Of a DNA stretch of 64,000 nt, positions 14,688 through 64,000 are shown piece by piece. Under the pieces are notes generated by a model. It saw nothing but the letters and a program-made list of their open reading frames with translations. It searched no databases and was not told the origin of the DNA. How positions within the stretch are numbered: the stretch's first letter is position 1; the number at the start of each line of letters is the position of its first letter. The translations under genes and the position numbers were made by a program. This stretch comes from a virus: IMG/VR virus record IMGVR_UViG_3300045988_157167, positions 1 through 64,000 of that record. The stretch is one strand, 5' to 3'.

Positions 14688-15368
14688 ATACCGATAGGTA
14701 AAACTTTGATATACTTTATGTATAATCTCCATCTTTTCCCCCGGTCCAAACCGTACGTGCGACTTTCATCGCATACGGCTTTCCATCGTAAAATTTTACG
14801 ACTAGAGGCCTTCGCTCCTAATAGTTTTATCCTCCTTTATACATTACTGTATATAGTAACTATCGGCTATTAATCAACACTACTATGCTTCCTCTGACTT
14901 CTTCTATTTTCAACGATATAGCAATCTCCAATAGAAGATCTCCTAAGTTCCAATAAGATTATCCCTTTTTTTACTTCGACTTAGGTTTCCTCTGTATGTT
15001 ATAAGCTATATATAACTGACTACTTTAATCATCATATATTTAGTAAAACTTTAAATGTAAACAAAGTACGAATGTTTACATTAACTTATAACACTTCAAA
15101 CAAGGATTCGTCTCCTAACCATATCAAAGTTTTTAAAGATGACCACTCCATATAGTTATTTATATAACATCAGGCTTTGTCCTTACCGTACTTTATACAA
15201 TTCGAGTGCTATCTCTTATGCATAACGGGGTATCATCAATATCACTTTAAAGTAGTTGTGATAGAAAGAAATTTCATCTTTCAATTCATCTTATTAGTTA
15301 AAGTTATAAATAACCTCTCAGCTTTTGTTCTCTATCTCAGAGCTTTTATATGCTGAAACTTAGCGTAC
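14688..15368 (-). mobile_element. ORF-less group II intron (681 nt) in the tape measure gene
   Basis: The minus strand starts GUACG and ends ...CGGUAU. Domain V AAGCCGUAUGCGAUGAAAGUCGCACGUACGGUUU lies at 14748-14781, followed by a DVI-like helix with a bulged A. There is no ORF, and the exons join in frame. Confidence 0.85.
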
Positions 15369-28615: not shown

Positions 28616-28693
28616 TGGCTGGCTTAGTGAGATTCGAACTCACAACAAACCATGGTCCGTAGCCATGTGCTCTATCCGTTGAGCTATAAGCCA
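28616..28693 (-). tRNA. tRNA-Arg (anticodon ACG), CCA encoded
   Basis: Hand-folded cloverleaf: acceptor UGGCUUA/UAAGCCA, D stem GCUC/GAGC, anticodon stem CAUGG/CCAUG with loop CUACGGA, T arm GUGAG-UUCGAAU-CUCAC. The variable loop is unusually long at 7 nt. Confidence 0.75.
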
Positions 28694-29567: not shown

Positions 29568-29641
29568 TGGCTGGGCGTAATAGATTCGAACTATTATTCC
29601 AGGAATCAAAATCCTGTGTCCTACCTTTGAACGAACACCCA
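29568..29641 (-). tRNA. tRNA-Gln (anticodon UUG), CCA encoded
   Basis: Hand-folded 74-nt cloverleaf: acceptor UGGGUGU/ACGCCCA, D stem GUUC/GGAC, anticodon stem CAGGA/UCCUG with loop UUUUGAU, T arm AAUAG-UUCGAAU-CUAUU. Confidence 0.85.
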
Positions 29642-29757: not shown

Positions 29758-30339
29758 TTATTGATATTCTTTCATTCTTCTAATTAGTGTAGCTTTGCTT
29801 ATTCCTGTTACTTCTGTAACTTGCTTATAACTCATGCCACTTTGCTTTAGATCAATGGCATGCTTAATTTGTTTATTTGAATACTTTTGCGGTCTACCTT
29901 CCGTAAAATCTTCTCTTTGTCTAGCTATTGCCTTGCCTTCTTTTGTTCTTTCAACTATCATGTCTCTTTCAAATTCGGCAAATCCAAGGAAGATAGTTCT
30001 TATTAGCTTTCCGTTAGGTGTATTATCCATTAAACCTAAGTTTACTATATGAACCTTTATATCTTGTTCTAGTAATTTGTCTATTATGCTTAATCCATGT
30101 ATTGTACTTCTAGCAAATCTGTCTAACTTAGTTACTACTAATGTATCTCCTGGTTTTAATTGTTTAAGAAGTTTATCAAAATTTTTGCGATCTTCTTGTT
30201 TCTTTGTTCCAGTATAAGAATCAACTACTATGTTTTCTTCTAAACACCCATTTGCTAATAATATTTCTGTTTGACCTTCTAATGAGTTTCCATCTTTCTT
30301 TTGTGAGTAAGTACTAACTCTTGCATATCCATATTTCAT
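29758..30339 (-). CDS. small serine recombinase (resolvase/invertase family)
   Basis: 193 aa with the N-terminal catalytic motif [25 protein letters not shown], and a C-terminal HTH ([24 protein letters not shown]). Confidence 0.9.
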
Positions 30340-30438: not shown

Positions 30439-31701
30439 TTAAACATATGCAAATGTATATCCATGCGTTGTTTTTCCTTTTCCTTGTAATACCCTTTCTA
30501 TATTTTTTCTTGGGATATTTAGTTTTCTTGCACAAATCCCTATTCCCTCAATAATTTCTTCTGAATTATCTTTTAAATTTGTTGCTTTAATAGTTTTCTT
30601 AGGAGCAACATTTTTGCTATATTTAGCTTTTACTGCCAATATAGAAGTGTAATCCTTACTTTCTATATATGGAATTAACTGTTGTTTTACATTTATAGCA
30701 TCTTCTTCTGTTTTAAAATGGCCTATTGGTATCTGATTTCCATTAAAGGTTATTCTTAAAAACCAACTTTTCCTTTTAATATCATAATTAACTCCTTTTT
30801 CTTTGCTCTTATACATATTTTTATTTCTTATTTTTCTTAGCTTTTTACATTGCTCTTGTAATCCTTCTCTTTCACACATTTTTTCAAGTGTATATCTCGA
30901 ATGTCCAGTAAAATTTTCCATATCTATAAACGTTTCGATACCTTTTTCCATTCCTTTTAAAAATTTTTGTTTCATTCGAGTATTTTTCACATCTTTAAAA
31001 ACTTTACCATAATCTTTTATTTTTTCTTTGTAAAAAATAGTTCTAATGCTATTTTCTGCAAGATTATATTTATTACAAAGTTCTTCTAAAGAATAATTAT
31101 AAGAATATAAATCCTCTATAATTTTTTTATTTCTACACTCTATAAAATTTAATTGTTTGATTTTTTCATTTAAATCGGATCTCACATCTATCCAAGAGTC
31201 AAGATTTTTAATGCTATAAATGATATTTTCTCTAACTCCAGTTAATTTAGATATTTTCTTTATAGAGATTGGATTATTTTCTAGTACTGACAACATTTCC
31301 TTAACCTTAGCAATTTGATGCTCTGTATAATCACTTCTTTCTCTATTTACTTTCTTTAAATTTTCTAATCTTTTCTTTCGTATTTCTTCTGGAATTTCAT
31401 TTAGAAAATAGTCTCCACCTTCTGTCATATTAAATCCATTATTATAAGTATCATATTTTTTTATATAATACTTTTCTAAATCATTTAAAATGTCAAGTTC
31501 ATCACAATAATATATAGCTTTAAACTTAAAAGCATCTTCTCCATATTTATTCCAACTTCTTTGAAGATATTCATTATCATGATTACCTCTATTTAAAGCA
31601 CTTATATGGCTTTTCCATCTTTTTTCAAAATCTTGGATCGTTTGTCCTATATACATATCACCTGTTACTACATTTGTTATTGAGTAAATTCCAAAATACA
31701 T
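30439..31701 (-). CDS. GIY-YIG homing endonuclease with AP2-like DNA-binding domain
   Basis: GIYSITN...YIGQT...RWKSH...N..LQRSWNKYG matches the GIY-YIG module. The central part has HTH repeats. The C-terminal GVNYDIKRKSWFLRITFNGNQIPIGHFKTEEDA is AP2-like. Confidence 0.85.
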   Translation of the reverse strand: MYFGIYSITNVVTGDMYIGQTIQDFEKRWKSHISALNRGNHDNEYLQRSWNKYGEDAFKFKAIYYCDELDILNDLEKYYIKKYDTYNNGFNMTEGGDYFLNEIPEEIRKKRLENLKKVNRERSDYTEHQIAKVKEMLSVLENNPISIKKISKLTGVRENIIYSIKNLDSWIDVRSDLNEKIKQLNFIECRNKKIIEDLYSYNYSLEELCNKYNLAENSIRTIFYKEKIKDYGKVFKDVKNTRMKQKFLKGMEKGIETFIDMENFTGHSRYTLEKMCEREGLQEQCKKLRKIRNKNMYKSKEKGVNYDIKRKSWFLRITFNGNQIPIGHFKTEEDAINVKQQLIPYIESKDYTSILAVKAKYSKNVAPKKTIKATNLKDNSEEIIEGIGICARKLNIPRKNIERVLQGKGKTTHGYTFAYV

Positions 31702-52015: not shown

Positions 52016-52318
52016 TTACTCCTTGTCTTTTAATAACTCTGCAAGCTTTTCTATTGCACCTTTTAAAGCTTCTTCTATGTTTGTTTCTTCTGTTTCAGTA
52101 TGTGATTTGATTTTTATATCTTTACTTCTTAGTTGTATTATTTTTTCTATTGATGTAGTTAAGATGTTTAATAATTTTGTTTCACTTATATCACATTCAT
52201 CTGCCATTCCTTTTAGAGCTCCATAGTTTAAATATGCTAGTTCAGTCAACATTTCTGCTCTGTCTTCACCTTTTATGTTTACCTCTACTTTTCCATTATT
52301 TACGATTGCTTTTATCAT
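52016..52318 (-). CDS. hypothetical protein
   Basis: 100-aa ORF downstream of the MBL gene. Confidence 0.5.
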   Translation of the reverse strand: MIKAIVNNGKVEVNIKGEDRAEMLTELAYLNYGALKGMADECDISETKLLNILTTSIEKIIQLRSKDIKIKSHTETEETNIEEALKGAIEKLAELLKDKE

Positions 52319-52328
52319 CTTTTACCCC

Positions 52329-53042
52329 CTAAAATATAATTTCTGTGCTTTTTTCTGCTATTAAAACAGGTATTCCAGTAGCTTCTTCTACCTTTTCTTT
52401 CATTATTTGACTATCTCCGTGTTTGTCACTTAAATGTAATAACATCAAATTTCTTGTCTTACTTAAATCACTAGCTTTTAGAAAGTCAATTACATTTTCA
52501 AGTTCAAAATGTGATTCTTTTATACGAACGCTTAAACTTGTTTCTATGCAATATTCTTCTAAATTTTCTTTGATATAGTTACATTCAACCAAGATACTAT
52601 TTACATTCTTGAAGTTGTATTCACAGTAGCAAGTATCAGTTATAAATAACAAAGTTCCTATGTCCTGATGTTTTATAAGAAATCCTAAAGGTTCTTCTGC
52701 ATCATGAATAACATCAAACGGTAAAATAGTAAAATTTCCTATTTGTTGCCTTTTGTTAGCTTTTACTATTTTAGTCCTATAGTTTTTTATGTTTAACTTT
52801 TCAAAAGTCCCCTTAGCTGAATATACATCTATTCCATTTTCTGTTAAGTCTTTAATTGATTTAGAGTGATCTTTATGTTCATGAGTAACTAAACATCCAA
52901 CAACTTTGTCAATTTTGTAATTAAGACCTTTTAAAATTTCTTTATATTTGATACCTGCTTCAATTATTAGAGTTTCATCAGGAGTAATAAGTAAATAGCA
53001 ATTACCCCTGCTCCCACTTGCTAAAACTTTTAAAACGGACAA
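52329..53042 (-). CDS. metallo-beta-lactamase fold hydrolase/nuclease
   Basis: HxHxDH motif VTHEHKDH; located next to recT. Confidence 0.75.
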   Translation of the reverse strand: MSVLKVLASGSRGNCYLLITPDETLIIEAGIKYKEILKGLNYKIDKVVGCLVTHEHKDHSKSIKDLTENGIDVYSAKGTFEKLNIKNYRTKIVKANKRQQIGNFTILPFDVIHDAEEPLGFLIKHQDIGTLLFITDTCYCEYNFKNVNSILVECNYIKENLEEYCIETSLSVRIKESHFELENVIDFLKASDLSKTRNLMLLHLSDKHGDSQIMKEKVEEATGIPVLIAEKSTEIIF

Positions 53043-53941
53043 TCTTCTTCCTCTTGAGTTTCTTCTACAACTTCAGCATCTATTTTCGTATCTTCATCAA
53101 TTATTTCTGCTTCCATTTGCTCTACTTCATCTATATCTATTGTTTTTTTATTAGCTTTTTCTGTTATTTCACTTTCAAAAGCTTCATTTTGGAATGTCAC
53201 AACATCTTCATCATCTGAATAAGGGCTTCTATTAAATGCACTTGCAAATAACTCACTATCATCTGATGTATTTATATATAATTTACAAGCTCTATTTATA
53301 ACAGTTCTTTTAGCCATTTGATCTGGGAAATTTATATGTGAAGGACTTTTACCTTTTGTTGGTCCTTGCGCCCATGATGTTTTTATTTGTGGCATACTCA
53401 TATATTCCGTATGTAAAACCCCTTCTTCTCCTATAACAACAGCAAATGCTCCTATTATCTTTGAGTTATCTATATTTTTTAAATCAGGTTTATAATCTAT
53501 TACATTTATATTTCCATTTTTATACTCAAACTCAACTTCATCACCTTCATAGATACAATAAGCTTTCACATCTTTTATATATTTACTTCTTTTCGCTGCA
53601 GCTATAGTTCCCATATAGCTTTTAGTTAGTTGGAGTTTATTTCCATGTGGAATAAAGTAACATTGCTTTTTCGAAGGACTTAATCCTTGAATAATCATAT
53701 CTAAAAGAGAATTTGCTATACTTACTTTTGTACAAGTTTCTAATACACATCTTTTATTTTTATCTTTTGTTTCTTGTAAGATTAGATAAGCTGATTTTAA
53801 AGCGTTTTGTGCTGCATAATTCTCTGGTATTACTAATTCTTTACTTGCTTGTAACTCTCTTACCCTTTCTAAAACTTCGTCTGTAACAGTTTTAGGTTTT
53901 TCTGCAATATTTTGAGATTGTTTAATTATTTGATTTTTCAA
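53030..53941 (-). CDS. recT: RecT-family single-strand annealing protein
   Basis: The core VSIANSLLDMIIQGLSPSKKQCYFIPHGNKLQLTKSYMGTIAAAKR resembles the RecT family. Acidic C-terminal tail and TTG start. Confidence 0.8.
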   Translation of the reverse strand: MKNQIIKQSQNIAEKPKTVTDEVLERVRELQASKELVIPENYAAQNALKSAYLILQETKDKNKRCVLETCTKVSIANSLLDMIIQGLSPSKKQCYFIPHGNKLQLTKSYMGTIAAAKRSKYIKDVKAYCIYEGDEVEFEYKNGNINVIDYKPDLKNIDNSKIIGAFAVVIGEEGVLHTEYMSMPQIKTSWAQGPTKGKSPSHINFPDQMAKRTVINRACKLYINTSDDSELFASAFNRSPYSDDEDVVTFQNEAFESEITEKANKKTIDIDEVEQMEAEIIDEDTKIDAEVVEETQEEEDCPF

Positions 53942-54000
53942 TACTCGTCACTCTCCTAACTTTTTAGTGTTTAATTATGTTTAATTATAGACAAATGTGT

Positions 54001-55248
54001 TTATATCACACTATCTAACCAATAAATTTTATTATATTTCCAAAGTAATCTACATTTTCTTACATTGACTTTTTTGCAATGTTTTGTAGGACTTTGAAAA
54101 TTTAATGCGTTCAAATGTGGATATAATGCTGTAACATATCCTTTATGAGTTTCTCCATTTCTGTAAGTATATTCAACCAAATCTCTATGTTTAATTCCTA
54201 ATACATTATCTGTTTTTGCTTTTGATTTTCTACGCATCGGTTTAATCATCCATTCTTTTATATTGCAAGTATCTGGAAAACAATTTGTTATACAAATAGC
54301 ATCGTTTGAATGAGATTTTTCTATATTCCATTCAATTCTTTTATTTGCAGTATCTCCACCTGTTGTAAGATGTAATATTCCTAATTGTTTAATATTTTCT
54401 CTAAGATAATTTTTACCTTGCATGACATGCATTGCATAATCAAATCTTTTTGGCTTACTTTTTATTTTGGTGAAATATCTCTCTTCAAATTCTCGTTCTT
54501 TCCCTTCTGTCTTTTGATGACAAGAAGAACAAAGAGTAATGAGATTCCCAATAGTATTTGCTCCACCAAATCTCTTTGCTCGAATATGATGAACCTCAAG
54601 TACAGTATTTGTTTTTCCACATTCTTGACATTTACAACTATCTCTTAATATTGTCGCTTTTCTAAGATTTTCATCTAATCTATTATTCTTCTGATATTGC
54701 CAATTATAAGGTTTATATCCATCGGCCATTGCTCTTATATCTATTGCTACATCTTCAAGATAATATTCTTTAATATTTATCCATTTATTTAATTGATATA
54801 AAACTCTAAGAATAGAATCTTTCTTTTGTTTAATACTTGGCGCTAATCTATTAGTTTTTTTTGAAGATGCTCTATTATTGAATCTAGGTTTACGATATCT
54901 TTTATGATATCTACGGTATTGTCTATATCCTCTACGAACATCCATTAAGTGTTTTACATCTTGTCTTTGTTCAATAGTTCCTTTAAATACAACTTTATTT
55001 TTACTTGGACATTTTTGAACAATTGCTATTCCAACATGAGAACTACCATCGTCAATTCCACAAACCATATGACTTTCATCTTCGTCATCAGGTTCAACTT
55101 CTTTTTCTAACTGAATTACCATAGGATATTTACTTTTTAATTTTGCTCGACCTTTTCTAATCAAATACCAACCTTTATTTACTTTAGTTGGAGCTAAAGG
55201 TCTATTGTTTTTATCTACAACAAAACAATATTCAATTTTATTTTCCAT
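54001..55248 (-). CDS. iscB: IscB (OMEGA RNA-guided nuclease; RuvC split by HNH)
   Basis: PLMP-like N-terminus (NNRPLAPTK), Ruv[12 protein letters not shown], Arg-rich bridge [22 protein letters not shown], Ruv[20 protein letters not shown]...LEVHHI...[10 protein letters not shown], Ruv[14 protein letters not shown], and a C-terminal TID-like domain. Confidence 0.85.
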
Positions 55249-55515
55249 CTCTGGACACCTTCCTTTCGGAGAATTTTTCGTCTTGGGAATGTCAAGTAGA
55301 GGATATGTGTTTCCCTGTTATCAATACAGGACATTAGCATTGTTTCTTGGTTAGCACTCACAGAGTTTCAGACTGACGATTACATCTAAAAGTGTGTGTT
55401 TACCTTACTACTCAACATAGTTCATATCTGCAATATATGTTTCCATAAAAGCAGTCACTAACCCTTGAAACCTCTTGTTAAGCCATATACAAAAGACTAA
55501 TGTGTCCACTTTTCT
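55249..55515 (-). ncRNA. candidate IscB omega-RNA (HEARO-type) scaffold
   Basis: ~270-nt ORF-free leader directly 5' of iscB. Long-range pairing UGGACAC (55508-55502) with GUGUCCA (55258-52) closes the region. Internal hairpins include CCUGU-AUUGAUA-ACAGG and UCC-GAAA-GGA. Confidence 0.65.
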
Positions 55516-55547
55516 ATATGTTTGACTATATATTTCTATGTATATAG

Positions 55548-55790
55548 TCACTTAACAATTAGTCCTGTTGCTAGTAACAATATGCGTTTAACTTTTTCTT
55601 TCCTTTGTTCTTCTGTCAGATAGTTATTTTTCTTAGTCAATCTATCTTGTTTATGTCTCTTAGCTTTTTCAAAATTAACCTTTCCTCTAACTGAAGATAA
55701 TGTTCGCCCTAAATATTTTGCTATTTCTTCATCTGATATTAATTTATAATTTTCTTCTAAAAACTTTTCTTCTTCTATGCTCCATTTCAT
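55548..55790 (-). CDS. Myb/SANT-like small protein
   Basis: WSIEEEKFLEENYKLISDEEIAKYLGRTLSSVRGK has a single Myb-like repeat pattern. Confidence 0.45.
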   Translation of the reverse strand: MKWSIEEEKFLEENYKLISDEEIAKYLGRTLSSVRGKVNFEKAKRHKQDRLTKKNNYLTEEQRKEKVKRILLLATGLIVK

Positions 55791-55798
55791 TTTTACAC

Positions 55799-57748
55799 CT
55801 ATTCATTTATTTTTATTTCTTTATCCTCTGTGACTACCAACTTAATCAATTGACCTTTAGTATCTGCTATTTTATTTACACATTCACTATTATCAATGAA
55901 TATAGGTGCGACTAATTCGAAATACTCGGATAAAGTGTTTATTATATCTATACCAGCATTTATTTGACCTGCAGTATTTGCATTAGAAAATGGTACTCCA
56001 TTTATAGTTGCCTCACAGGTTTCTGCAATAGCTCCGTTAACTTGAGTAGAGAATAATTTAAAGCTTACGTTCTTAAAATGCTTATTTATATTTTTTTCTA
56101 AAAGTTCTACTCTCTTAGTAATAAACTTTTCATATAGCATTATAAGACCTTCTTGTCTTGCTATTTCTACTCCGATTTGTTTTTCCTCTGCTTTTAGATC
56201 TTCTATTCTTTGATTTACTTTCTTGTTATTTTTAACTGCTCCTAATTGACTATATAACCCTTTTAGTTGTGTATTAATTTCTCCTTTTTCAATTAAAAGT
56301 CCTGATTTATCTGGATATGTATCATCTTCTTGTAAACTTTCTAAAAGCTTGTTGTTTTCTCTTTTAAGTTTTAATATTTTTTCTTTCGTTGCATCACTAG
56401 GCGTATAAGAAATACCTCCTATTTGGCTTTCTAGCTGATTTATTTTTTCTTTCTTGATGTTTATATTATTTTCTATCTCAGAAAGCTTTAAAGTATAATT
56501 TTCGATATCTTCTTGAATATCTTCTTGTTCTTTAACTTTTATTTTGCCTTTTTCTATTACTTCTTCTTTTCTTCTAGCTTTATCAAGATTGAAGTTTTTC
56601 TCTAATTCTGCTTGTTTTTCTTCTATGTCTGATTCATCAAAAGGTCGTTTACAAGTAGGGCACTCTGTTTTTATACTACTAAAATCAACTTTCTCAGCTT
56701 GAATTCCACTAAATTCTTCTCTTAATTTAGCAGCTTCATTTTTTAGCATTTCAAACTTTCTAGTTAATCCATCTATTTTATATTCACATTCATTTTTCTT
56801 TTGTTGTTGTGAATATAAATCTTTTTCTTCTTTTCTTCTTTCTTCTTCTAATATTCTTACTTTATTGTCATAATCTTTTCTGTCAGCTTGTCTTTCTTCT
56901 TCGATTAAGTTTTCATTTTCACTTATTTTTTTCATTACTTCATTTCTTTTAGCTAATAATTCTTTACTACTATTAGCTATATCGCTTATTTTATTGTCTA
57001 TATCTTTTAACTTACTTTCTTTAAATGCTATTTCTTTTTCAACTTCTTTTACATCTAAATCAACTACTGTTTCCATTAATTCCTCGATTTTGTAAGGAAT
57101 TGACTTTTTATTTTCTCTTAGTTTTTTAATGCTACCTTTTTTACTGTCTATTAGCTTTGATACATCTTCTTTTTCTAGATCTTGTTTTACTAAATTTAAA
57201 TCTTTATCAGTTTTTACAACATCATCTACTGATATATTCCCTCCAGCAACTTCTAAGATGACTTTTCTTTGTTCTTTCCAACCAAGAGAAGGAAAATGGA
57301 AAGGGTTAGTTAATAATTTAAATGTTTCTTCGTCTGCTATTTCATTTATTTGCTTGTTATAATCTGATTTTTTAACTGGAATATCATCAATTTCATATTT
57401 TGTTGTATTCCCATCAAATACTTTTTCGCTTTCTCCTCTTCTAGAGGTCCATTTTTCTTTATATTCTTTTGATAGTTTTACTTCTAATCCATCTACTTCT
57501 AAGATGCCTGTTACATGAGGATTTAAACCTCTTATATATTCGTTATTTTCATCTAAAGGTTTTAACTCAAATTTGCTATCTCCTTTACTGTTTTTATCGA
57601 ATAATAACCATGTAAAAGCATCAAATATACTTGATTTTCCAGTTGCATTTTGGCCTGATATTGTTGTGATGTCTTTGAAATTTATGTCTAATTTTGATAT
57701 GCCTTTAAAATTGCTTATTGATAGTTGTTTTAATTTTATCTCTTTCAT
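55799..57748 (-). CDS. SbcC/Rad50-like AAA ATPase
   Basis: N-terminal Walker A GQNATGKSS, a very long E/K-rich coiled coil with a central CPTC zinc hook-like motif, and a C-terminal ATPase half. Confidence 0.75.
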   Translation of the reverse strand: MKEIKLKQLSISNFKGISKLDINFKDITTISGQNATGKSSIFDAFTWLLFDKNSKGDSKFELKPLDENNEYIRGLNPHVTGILEVDGLEVKLSKEYKEKWTSRRGESEKVFDGNTTKYEIDDIPVKKSDYNKQINEIADEETFKLLTNPFHFPSLGWKEQRKVILEVAGGNISVDDVVKTDKDLNLVKQDLEKEDVSKLIDSKKGSIKKLRENKKSIPYKIEELMETVVDLDVKEVEKEIAFKESKLKDIDNKISDIANSSKELLAKRNEVMKKISENENLIEEERQADRKDYDNKVRILEEERRKEEKDLYSQQQKKNECEYKIDGLTRKFEMLKNEAAKLREEFSGIQAEKVDFSSIKTECPTCKRPFDESDIEEKQAELEKNFNLDKARRKEEVIEKGKIKVKEQEDIQEDIENYTLKLSEIENNINIKKEKINQLESQIGGISYTPSDATKEKILKLKRENNKLLESLQEDDTYPDKSGLLIEKGEINTQLKGLYSQLGAVKNNKKVNQRIEDLKAEEKQIGVEIARQEGLIMLYEKFITKRVELLEKNINKHFKNVSFKLFSTQVNGAIAETCEATINGVPFSNANTAGQINAGIDIINTLSEYFELVAPIFIDNSECVNKIADTKGQLIKLVVTEDKEIKINE

Positions 57749-57757
57749 TTTCTCCCC

Positions 57758-57913
57758 CTATTTAAAAAACTCTAATGGTGATACATTTAAAGCTTTCGAA
57801 AGTCCTTTTAGCACTACTAGAGTAGGATTTGTTATAACCCCATTCTCTAGTTTTGCTATATAGCTTTCTGTAACACCAACTGCGTTTGCTAATTCTGTTC
57901 GGCTTTTTTTCAT
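57758..57913 (-). CDS. XRE-family HTH protein, 51 aa
   Basis: Own reading: MKKSRTELANAVGVTESYIAKLENGVITNPTLVVLKGLSKALNVSPLEFFK-stop. Confidence 0.6.
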   Translation of the reverse strand: MKKSRTELANAVGVTESYIAKLENGVITNPTLVVLKGLSKALNVSPLEFFK

Positions 57914-58160: not shown

Positions 58161-58571
58161 TTAAAAAGGTATGTCATCATCATCTATAGCTTGAAATCCA
58201 TTTGGATCTAACCCTGGATTTGTTATATTATTTGTTCCTTGTTGATTATCTTTCGGATAATCTAATGCTTGTACACTTCTACCACTAACCTTAGTAAAAG
58301 TTCTATTTTCTCCATCTTGAGTTTGATATCTATCAACTCTAAGATTTCCTTGAATAGCAACTAATCTACCTTTTGTTATATAATTAGCACAAAATTCAGC
58401 TGCTTTCCCTATAACTTCTATTGGTATAAAGTCTGTTTCTTTTGTCCCATCTTTTTTCTTATAGTCTCTGTCTATTGCCATCGTAAAAGTAGCAACAGGT
58501 GTTCCAGAATTAGGTATGTATCTTAACTCTGGGTCTTTTGTTAATCGTCCTACTAAAACTACATTATTCAT
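58161..58571 (-). CDS. ssb: single-stranded DNA-binding protein
   Basis: MNNVVLVGRLTKDPELRY OB-fold start and a C-terminal DDDIPF tail. Start moved to ATG at 58571, which follows GAAAGGAAAGG. Confidence 0.9.
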   Translation of the reverse strand: MNNVVLVGRLTKDPELRYIPNSGTPVATFTMAIDRDYKKKDGTKETDFIPIEVIGKAAEFCANYITKGRLVAIQGNLRVDRYQTQDGENRTFTKVSGRSVQALDYPKDNQQGTNNITNPGLDPNGFQAIDDDDIPF

Positions 58572-59163
58572 CTTTACCTTTCCTTTCACTAACTTTCATT
58601 ATTAATTTAGCTATATTTGAACCCGTTTTCGTCAATTCTTTATCATGAAAAATTAATTTTTCATGGTTCATTCTTAGTAATTGACTTTTATTAATTAATA
58701 TTAAATTATCTTTTTCTAAGTTCAATTTGTTTTGATCAGCAAATATAACTACATCATCTTGTGTTAATTTGATATTATGATATTTTTCATATAGAATCCT
58801 ATGCTTCAACTTCCACACATTAGGTTCTTTTACTTTCATTAGAATATATCCATTACTATCAATTCTTTCACTACCAATTTCTTTTTTATTCCAAGGTTTA
58901 CAACCTTTTTGAAAAGAAGTTTTATTTGGACCAGTAAGTCCTTTAGTTCCTTTATTCCACGTTTTATGTCCCTTTTGAAACTGGCCATCAAACTCTGTGT
59001 TATATCCATATCTTTTAATTGCACTTGTTATTTGACTTAGTTTGAATTTATACTCAAATTTTTCGTTCATTAAGTCTAATATTTCCTTACGATGTTTCCC
59101 TGGAGTAATTTCTCCAAGATACTTTTTTTCTTCTTCACTCCATTTATGTGGTTTTTCGCTCAT
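58564..59163 (-). CDS. HNH-type homing endonuclease-like protein
   Basis: GSERIDSNGYILMKV...KLKHRILYEKYHNIKL...VVIFADQNKLNLEKDNLILI resembles the HNH_3 layout, with an N-terminal Myb-like segment. A catalytic His position appears substituted. Confidence 0.6.
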   Translation of the reverse strand: MSEKPHKWSEEEKKYLGEITPGKHRKEILDLMNEKFEYKFKLSQITSAIKRYGYNTEFDGQFQKGHKTWNKGTKGLTGPNKTSFQKGCKPWNKKEIGSERIDSNGYILMKVKEPNVWKLKHRILYEKYHNIKLTQDDVVIFADQNKLNLEKDNLILINKSQLLRMNHEKLIFHDKELTKTGSNIAKLIMKVSERKGKDE

Positions 59164-63229: not shown

Positions 63230-64000
63230 TTATATCGCAAAATTACTTTCGTATTGCCAATTATTATTATGATTTATGAATTTCAAGGCATAAATTGAAA
63301 CTTGTTTATATTTTTTGCCTGGTATAGTTATATACTCATCATTTATATTTTTTACATAAGCAGATGATTTGCCAGAAAAACCTGTAATATAACCAATTTG
63401 ACCAAAGATTTCTACTTTATCATTAAGGTAAAAACCATTTGCAAAACTTGTATTTTTCTCATTTCTTTTGCTTTCAGTGTTTTTAGTTTTTCTACCTTTT
63501 CTAGCTGTCGCTTCATGCAGTGAACGTTTTTTCTTTCTAAACTGCTTTATTTTAAAAACTTCATCACAGTTTTGATTTATACATTCAACTTTACTTATTG
63601 CAATAGCATCGTTATAATGAGTTTTCTCAAGTCCAAGTTTTTTTCTTCTTGGTGTTGTTATAGAACCATAAGTTATGTTAGCTTGAGGATATTTTTTAAA
63701 TACTTTTACCCTCATTGAGTTCATAAACGGTGGTTCTTTATAAGTTTTCATCTTTTTCTTTTTTATCATCCATTCATAAAGTATGCCGCCTGGTTTATGA
63801 TTCTCAGATGTGTGACAATCAGTACAAATTGTAGCTAAGTTGTCAGCTCTATCGCTTCCACCTTTACTTTTATAAATTACATGATGTGTATGAAGTACTT
63901 TATCTTTACTTTTTTTACAAACCTGGCAAGTGTAATTATCTCTTGCAAAGACAAAGTATCTCGTATTATAAAAGCCGAAGGCTTCGCCTTGTTGATAATC
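63230..64000 (-). CDS. iscB: second IscB-family nuclease, N-terminus beyond window edge
   Basis: The frame is open from 64000. HNH CQVCKKSKDKVLHTHHVIYKSKGGSDRADNLATICTDCH, RuvC-III THYNDAIAIS, and a TID-like C-terminus (GFYLNDKVEIFGQIGYITGF). Divergent from the first copy. Confidence 0.75.
   Translation of the reverse strand, partial: DYQQGEAFGFYNTRYFVFARDNYTCQVCKKSKDKVLHTHHVIYKSKGGSDRADNLATICTDCHTSENHKPGGILYEWMIKKKKMKTYKEPPFMNSMRVKVFKKYPQANITYGSITTPRRKKLGLEKTHYNDAIAISKVECINQNCDEVFKIKQFRKKKRSLHEATARKGRKTKNTESKRNEKNTSFANGFYLNDKVEIFGQIGYITGFSGKSSAYVKNINDEYITIPGKKYKQVSIYALKFINHNNNWQYESNFAI

Follow-up and report, generated by a model that had tools for sequence, protein, structure and literature searches.

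The analysed window, a stretch of 64,000 nucleotides from an IMG/VR virus record, is phage-like: all its genes are encoded on one strand, and its large terminase shares 45% identity with the terminase of a Clostridium perfringens phage. Matching contigs of 65–78 kb originate from metagenome assemblies, one of them being a Human Microbiome Project sample. The locus studied here contains an iscB gene preceded by its omega RNA. A small regulator-like ORF and the gene of an SbcC-like ATPase lie upstream, whereas the genes of RecT and of a hydrolase with the metallo-beta-lactamase (MBL) fold lie downstream (Table 1). This order of neighbours is the one described in an earlier interpretation based on the letters of the window (further referred to as the sequence-only reading). 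The extent of the element was given there as 54001–55550; the true span is from 55566 to 53958. Megablast search with region 52300–57800 against GenBank phages yielded no match, so the region has no annotated close relative among GenBank phages.

Table 1. Features of the IscB element and its surroundings (window positions; residue numbers of the window IscB for protein motifs)
Feature	Position	Strand	Remarks
Whole IscB/omega element, 1609 nt	53958..55566	−	Starts with AGGACTAATTG..., ends with ...CACTAAAAAGTT; from occupied vs empty alleles
Predicted guide TATTGTTACTAGCAAC, 16 nt	55567..55582	−	Phage DNA immediately preceding the scaffold; forms the 3' end of the 80-aa ORF
Omega RNA scaffold, ~318 nt	55249..55566	−	RNAalifold covariation; conservation edge; weak Rfam HEARO match
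P1, outermost helix	55565–55550 with 55483–55468	−	Covariation model
10-bp hairpin	55523..55550 (55550–55541 with 55532–55523)	−	Inside the scaffold part enclosed by P1
Helix 3	55530–55519 with 55495–55485	−	Omega RNA scaffold
Terminal hairpin	55270–55261	−	Immediately before the iscB ribosome-binding site
iscB CDS	54001..55248	−	415 aa
RPLAP	Residues 16–20		PLMP-type N-terminus, RPLAP instead of PLMP
GIDDG	Residues 64–68
Arg-rich stretch	Residues 105–126		Ends with RFNNR
LEDVAID	Residues 164–170
CKCQECG	Residues 205–211
VHHI	Residues 219–222
HNH segment	Residues 234–244		Includes CSSCH
SHSNDAI	Residues 312–318
Element 3' non-coding end	53958..54000	−	Left end in transposon orientation; from conservation among relatives
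AGGAG	53953..53957	−	recT ribosome-binding site and TAM-like motif; abuts the element 3' end
80-aa regulator-like ORF	55548..55790	−	Last four codons and stop (55562–55548) come from the element
RecT	53030–53941		Neighbour gene
MBL-fold hydrolase	52329–53042		Neighbour gene
SbcC-like ATPase	55799–57748		Neighbour gene

The nuclease and its genomic surroundings

The 415-aa ORF is a bona fide, intact IscB, as the sequence-only reading maintained. That reading also proposed a search against IscB profiles, and the NCBIfam equivalog model NF040563 (guided_IscB) matches the protein with 295 bits, the cut-off being 175, and with profile positions 1–313 of 314 covered. Pfam and PDB agree with this assignment. 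The Pfam domain RRXRR was found at residues 9–187 (166 bits), and Pfam HNH at residues 207–247. The top match in PDB is 9K2Z_A, named HfmIscB by its depositors (approximately 82% identity over residues 4–413, E-value 3.5e-240), and residues 320–413, where the C-terminal TAM-interacting domain is expected, align to HfmIscB in this match; OgeuIscB and other solved IscBs rank behind it with E-values of about 1e-21 to 1e-22. Features by which an IscB is recognised are seen in these matches and motifs, namely the RuvC domain split into parts I, II and III with an HNH insert, and the N-terminal PLMP-type domain with the arginine-rich bridge helix covered by RRXRR. Every protein motif quoted in the sequence-only reading was found in the ORF.

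The dN/dS ratio of iscB, calculated against 12 relatives with identity down to 67%, equals 0.07–0.31, and therefore IscB is under purifying selection. An identical (100%) protein is encoded on at least 22 contigs. Proteins with 51–60% identity are encoded by Staphylococcus phages of the Herelleviridae type (Silviavirus and relatives), where they are annotated as HNH endonuclease or hypothetical; HEARO RNAs have been listed in genomes of Silviavirus phages (PMC13346280).

No Y1 transposase TnpA (PF01797) was found among the called genes at approximately 44–64 kb and ten ORFs at 29.7–44 kb; the statement of the sequence-only reading that the element has no tnpA thus holds for the 28–64 kb part of the window. 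Approximately 1.5% of iscB genes are located near a tnpA (PMC10055086). The absence of TnpA is usual for iscB, so the element counts as non-autonomous. The only serine recombinase of the window (193 aa, 29758–30339, minus strand) is encoded 24 kb from the element, beside a region with tRNA and GOLLD RNA genes. It has the layout of a resolvase, the catalytic domain being followed by HTH_7, rather than the appearance of an IS607 transposase.

Several other features of the phage should be mentioned in their own right. A second, unrelated IscB element (63230–64000, minus strand; L001:288–2019) extends past the window end. Its protein of 460 aa is 27% identical to the first IscB, and the window holds the C-terminal part alone (ORF 63230–63769). 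This element has its own HEARO RNA (80.2 bits), a hairpin from the 5' part of which recurs just past the stop codon, and one contig (L006) is without it. A GOLLD RNA (RF02032, 28707–29165, minus strand), scoring 187 bits with the gathering score of 150, adjoins two tRNA genes, tRNA-Arg (28616–28693) and tRNA-Gln (29568–29641). A group II intron match (RF00029, 64 bits, 14688–14783, minus strand) is located at the 3' side of a gap of approximately 630 nt (14733–15359) having no ORF of at least 120 aa and lying between two structural-region ORFs; this region may represent a group II intron without an ORF. The window also encodes a homing-endonuclease-like GIY-YIG/HNH protein of 420 aa (30439–31701, minus strand) and an HNH endonuclease of 199 aa (58564–59163, minus strand) whose gene overlaps that of SSB, and an additional HNH ORF of 156 aa lies between the SSB and ATPase genes in a relative (L019:1106–1576). 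The content of selfish nucleases differs among the sister phages.

Omega RNA and the putative guide

We fetched 77 loci from viral contigs encoding relatives of the window IscB at 57–100% identity in many unrelated phage contexts. In these loci the region 5' of iscB is conserved from the start codon as far as (A)AGGACTAATTGTTAAG, where the conservation ends abruptly, and the sequence further 5' differs from context to context. RNAalifold applied to 50 relatives predicted 69 pairs with compensatory changes in 48 of them, and 97% of the cells in the predicted pairs form standard pairs. When the alignment columns were shuffled, changes on both sides were observed in 22.1 ± 2.6 pairs, and none of the 500 shuffles reached 48; in the slid-alignment controls such changes affected 12–19 pairs. 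A structured RNA directly 5' of the gene, ending at the ribosome-binding site, is what is expected of an IscB, and this is the arrangement seen here. The terminal hairpin occupies the same place as in IsrB and IscB, just 5' of the ribosome-binding site (PMC9581776).

The Rfam HEARO model (RF02033), the use of which had been suggested by the sequence-only reading, aligned over its full length to 55506–55271 (minus strand) with 31.3 bits and E-value 5.6e-4. A match does exist, but the gathering score of 83 bits is not reached, and we treat the window RNA as a divergent relative of HEARO and not as a curated Rfam member. Helix P1 reaches 55565, and therefore the scaffold begins approximately 60 nt further upstream than the Rfam alignment. 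Hence the RNA postulated upstream of iscB is a real structured RNA of the HEARO type, but the length of about 300 nt ascribed to it was too short, as the scaffold continues to 55566.

Two structural details of the earlier interpretation were retained in part. The segments UGGACAC (55508–55502) and GUGUCCA (55258–55252) are complementary and placed as described, but the 7-bp closing helix formed by them finds no support in covariation: it is perfect solely in the window element and a 96% relative, whereas elsewhere it comprises 4 bp and shows no compensatory change. The 10-bp hairpin is real and contains the stop codon of the 80-aa ORF, its first three bases being the TGA that now serves this ORF. 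However, it sits in element-specific DNA missing from the empty alleles and is a part of the element rather than of the upstream gene.

The guide had been assigned to 55526–55510. This assignment was rejected, given that the stretch lies inside the scaffold, with conservation across contexts and the covarying P1 both reaching 55565; much of it is paired in helix 3, and the scaffold around it is conserved. The 16 nt of phage DNA that immediately precede the scaffold, TATTGTTACTAGCAAC, are the likely guide. It was placed at 55582–55567 because by the rule of the IscB family the guide is located just 5' of the scaffold and because the conservation has a sharp edge at this point. The length of 16 nt is assumed, the value being taken over by us from OgeuIscB. 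The guide has a single perfect match in the window, which is the self-site. A scan for promoters and terminators, including the region upstream of the guide, revealed nothing above chance.

Occupied and empty alleles and the insertion site

Alleles were surveyed among the contigs encoding exactly the RecT protein of the window. The element was reported to be present at 15 such places and absent at 4; these comprise 7 occupied and 3 empty loci that were viewed, plus their unlisted similar places. In the empty loci (L011, L012 and L019) the stop codon of the 80-aa ORF is 14 nt from recT, and RecT is identical to that of the window. The view that the element is an insertion is thereby supported, since near-identical phages have the small regulator gene and recT 14 nt apart, and the comparison with phages lacking the insert, recommended in the sequence-only reading, also defined the element ends.

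The empty allele reads ...TATTGTTACTAGCAAC AGGAG TTTTATTAGATT AGGAG AGTGACG..., and the occupied allele reads ...TATTGTTACTAGCAAC, the element (AGGACTAATTG ... CACTAAAAAGTT), and then AGGAG AGTGACG.... The predicted target stretch of the empty allele is ...TATTGTTACTAGCAACAGGAGTTTTATTAG..., and the junction of the occupied one is ...GCAACAGGACTAATTG...; the common TATTGTTACTAGCAAC is followed by AGGAG in the empty and by AGGAC in the occupied allele. The C-terminus of the 80-aa ORF changes from ...TGVLLD in empty alleles to ...TGLIVK in the presence of the element. The flanks are approximately 99% identical with zero fixed differences between the occupied and empty classes, and an occupied locus (L018) and an empty one (L012) have right-flank variants in common.

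Exactly 17 nt, a single unit between the tandem AGGAG motifs, are absent from the occupied allele, whereas the empty alleles keep them. Therefore the empty alleles are not excision products, and it is the occupied state that is derived. The missing unit also implies that insertion at this place needs a second small deletion or microhomology-mediated repair. A precise excision product, in which GCAAC would be directly followed by AGGAGAGTG, was not seen among the empty alleles. Taken alone, the presence/absence polymorphism would be consistent with ordinary phage recombination as well.

Empty alleles of other contexts were recovered by gap-pattern scans of viral contigs, which provided four further contexts with 41, 1, 40 and 3 empty contigs. 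The arrangement of AGGAC at the beginning of the element and RGGAG immediately after its end is exact to the base in all four, and no duplication is observed. In nearly all of approximately 32 contexts an RGGAG-like ribosome-binding motif is found 3' of the element with a start codon 5–11 nt further on; thus the motif is the ribosome-binding site belonging to the following phage gene, with which the element is co-oriented. Conservation across these contexts falls off at both element edges, and on the iscB side it continues for approximately 45–60 nt past the stop codon in the relatives, the contexts diverging thereafter. The same geometry of element and site was observed for the copies from Firmicutes metagenome-assembled genomes (MAGs). 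The Eubacteriales MAG CM_BacCAG1528.41 contains at least 7 copies, full or partial, that belong to this IscB clade (L144, L146, L150, L153, L155, L158 and L161), a copy number that suggests active transposition there.

Insertion without target duplication by a fixed short motif that has a counterpart resembling it at the opposite element end is the behaviour by which IS200/IS605 (ISC) elements are recognised, and it was found here. Hairpins are located near the element ends (55550–55523 and around the iscB stop codon), and kindred sequence (ATAGACAAAAGTG vs CACATTTGTCTAT) was noticed by eye near both ends of the relatives. Since the element is situated exactly 5' of RGGAG in the four contexts with empty alleles, RGGAG is the probable TAM, with AGGAC as its probable element-encoded counterpart. 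Self and target would then differ in the single base after the common AGGA (C vs G), plus whatever follows.

Alternative descriptions of the junctions were rejected at individual loci. Target-site duplication with AAGGA repeated fails at L048, which has AAAGGA vs AAGGGA, and an element start at AAAGGAC is off by 1 nt in the L035 context. A crossover at a GG core, as made by a serine recombinase, does not reproduce the L048 junction; TTCAATTAAAGGAC is observed there, as predicted by insertion 5' of GGGAG.

In one phage lineage of approximately 130 kb the element occupies one of at least three sites per genome and another site is empty, which is seen in contigs _085291 (L049 occupied, L163 empty), _099270 (L076 occupied, L115 empty) and _115187 (L062 occupied, L110 empty). 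As a separate observation, the bases 5' of AGGA mirror the target motif (CAGGA/CAGGAG) inconsistently (L073 vs L074, L062 vs L063, L059 vs L077), and this mirroring varies even inside one context; conversion involving the element end and the neighbouring ribosome-binding site is one possibility.

Possible mode of spread and known systems

On balance, we believe that this is a non-autonomous, TnpA-less IscB element of the IS200/IS605 type (ISC) residing in an uncultured gut Firmicutes phage and probably spreading by RNA-guided homing. Homing, the mechanism considered in the sequence-only reading, appears reasonable. In the gene direction, the proposed layout is the 16-nt flank guide, the scaffold of approximately 318 nt starting with AGGAC, iscB, and the short 3' end at RGGAG. 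Read-through transcription of the phage gene upstream would probably give rise to the omega RNA, which IscB would bind. The complex is expected to recognise the 16-nt flank together with RGGAG, a combination that is exactly the element-free allele of the sister phages, and to spare the occupied allele, which has AGGAC where the target has RGGAG. During co-infection, the empty genome, once cut, would be repaired by recombination with the occupied genome, and the element would be copied as a gene drive. To reach a new site, invariably 5' of an RGGAG, the element probably needs TnpA acting in trans, from the host or co-resident.

Classical transposon maintenance would account for part of the same observations. 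According to this explanation, a TnpA provided in trans by the host moves and excises the element, IscB merely restores the excised copies, and the presence/absence pattern results from transposition and ordinary recombination with no homing from phage to phage. A fixed 5-nt motif with the similar AGGAC at the other end is the outcome of IS200/IS605 TnpA activity, and the many unrelated insertion contexts point in the same direction, as do the copies in the Eubacteriales MAG, whose number is typical of active transposition. However, tnpA was not found in the searched 28–64 kb of the window, a precise excision product is not among the empty alleles, which retain the ancestral 17 nt, and the genome of a lytic or temperate phage is only briefly together with a host TnpA. 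Besides, this explanation is compatible with homing, as empty alleles would here, too, be cut by the nuclease with its guide. We consider it rather unlikely, though deserving attention.

Two further explanations concern the role of the nuclease. The element could have been co-opted, an option raised in the sequence-only reading, either as a weapon that kills element-free relatives without being copied or as a regulator acting on the DNA adjacent to ribosome-binding sites. The strong purifying selection on iscB and the predicted target, which is the allele of a sister phage, are compatible with such a role, and killing of competitors by phage homing endonucleases is documented (review PMC13565253). 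But the guide is the local flank in every context, so that no fixed, selected target is apparent; the element is polymorphic and not fixed in each lineage; and the intact catalytic motifs argue against a role restricted to binding. Co-option thus found no support and seems improbable to us. It is still harder to believe that the element is an inert recent passenger which is intact merely through youth. An identical protein encoded on at least 22 contigs is what one would see in this case, but the dN/dS values across relatives down to 67% identity, the compensatory changes in 48 RNA pairs and the element-to-site geometry kept in approximately 32 contexts all argue against it.

Within the preferred reading, that of RNA-guided homing, a more specific proposal is advanced tentatively and may well prove incorrect: a phage-borne IscB clade uses the Shine–Dalgarno sequence (RGGAG) as its TAM and spreads independently of TnpA as an RNA-guided gene drive in co-infection. 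If this is true, every gene start of a Firmicutes phage is a potential landing site, with the element co-oriented before an intact ribosome-binding site, and the element is a natural "programmable homing endonuclease", the specificity of which is reset at each new flank. RGGAG as the TAM would explain the silent placement between phage genes with operons left unbroken. The near-isogenic alleles, the predictable guide and the simple candidate TAM offer a natural test of RNA-guided homing outside bacterial chromosomes, and the nuclease itself is compact (415 aa) and has a defined candidate motif.

The window IscB belongs to the same clade as HfmIscB (PDB 9K2Z), to which it is similar in sequence (approximately 82% identity), length class and motifs; in contrast to HfmIscB, the window copy is a natural phage insertion seen in its context and with known empty alleles. 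In IscB elements of the IS200/IS605 type, the guide lies beyond the right end and the TAM beside the left end (Meers et al., PMC10055086). The elements of the Geobacillus stearothermophilus IscB (Meers et al., PMC10055086) and OgeuIscB (7XHT, 7UTN) resemble the present one, as its layout is proposed here, in having the omega RNA upstream with the transposon end as its limit, the guide in the flank, the TAM at the other end and usually no tnpA, and their nuclease cuts the empty site. Sequence similarity to OgeuIscB, however, is distant (E-value about 1e-21), and the predicted TAM is RGGAG, a ribosome-binding site, whereas an AT-rich motif is reported for the G. stearothermophilus elements. The replicon is also different: it is a phage, and the relevant empty allele would be in a co-infecting genome and not on the sister chromosome.

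The pairing of RNA and ORF is the same as in HEARO (RF02033) and in viral HEARO/IscB (PMC9755519), but the window RNA matches the Rfam family weakly (31.3 bits, compared with 83), and the Rfam alignment misplaces its 5' end by 60 nt. More than 16% of the fragments encoding HEARO/IscB are reported to stem from viruses or prophages (Aliaga Goltsman et al., PMC9755519). As IscB/HEARO in viral contigs are already published (PMC9755519) and an 82% identical protein already has a structure, the advance made here is incremental. In the literature searched, we found neither an IscB clade with a TAM resembling a ribosome-binding site nor a documented occupied/empty polymorphism in phage populations.

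The same ribosome-binding-site-like motif is known from TnpB elements of the IS607 family, with reported TAMs AGGAG or GAGGG. Those elements, however, combine the TnpB nuclease with a serine recombinase, and the corresponding GG-core crossover fails at L048. Homing into co-infecting phages has been named as a conceivable mode for systems of the present kind (review PMC13565253). Like the free-standing homing endonuclease genes of phages (Seg and Mob of T4; review PMC13565253), the element is intergenic, selfish and polymorphic, and it is expected to be copied by recombination once the allele without it has been cut. In contrast to Seg and Mob, where the protein recognises the target, recognition here is predicted to rely on an RNA guide and a short motif, and the guide would be reset by the flank at each landing.
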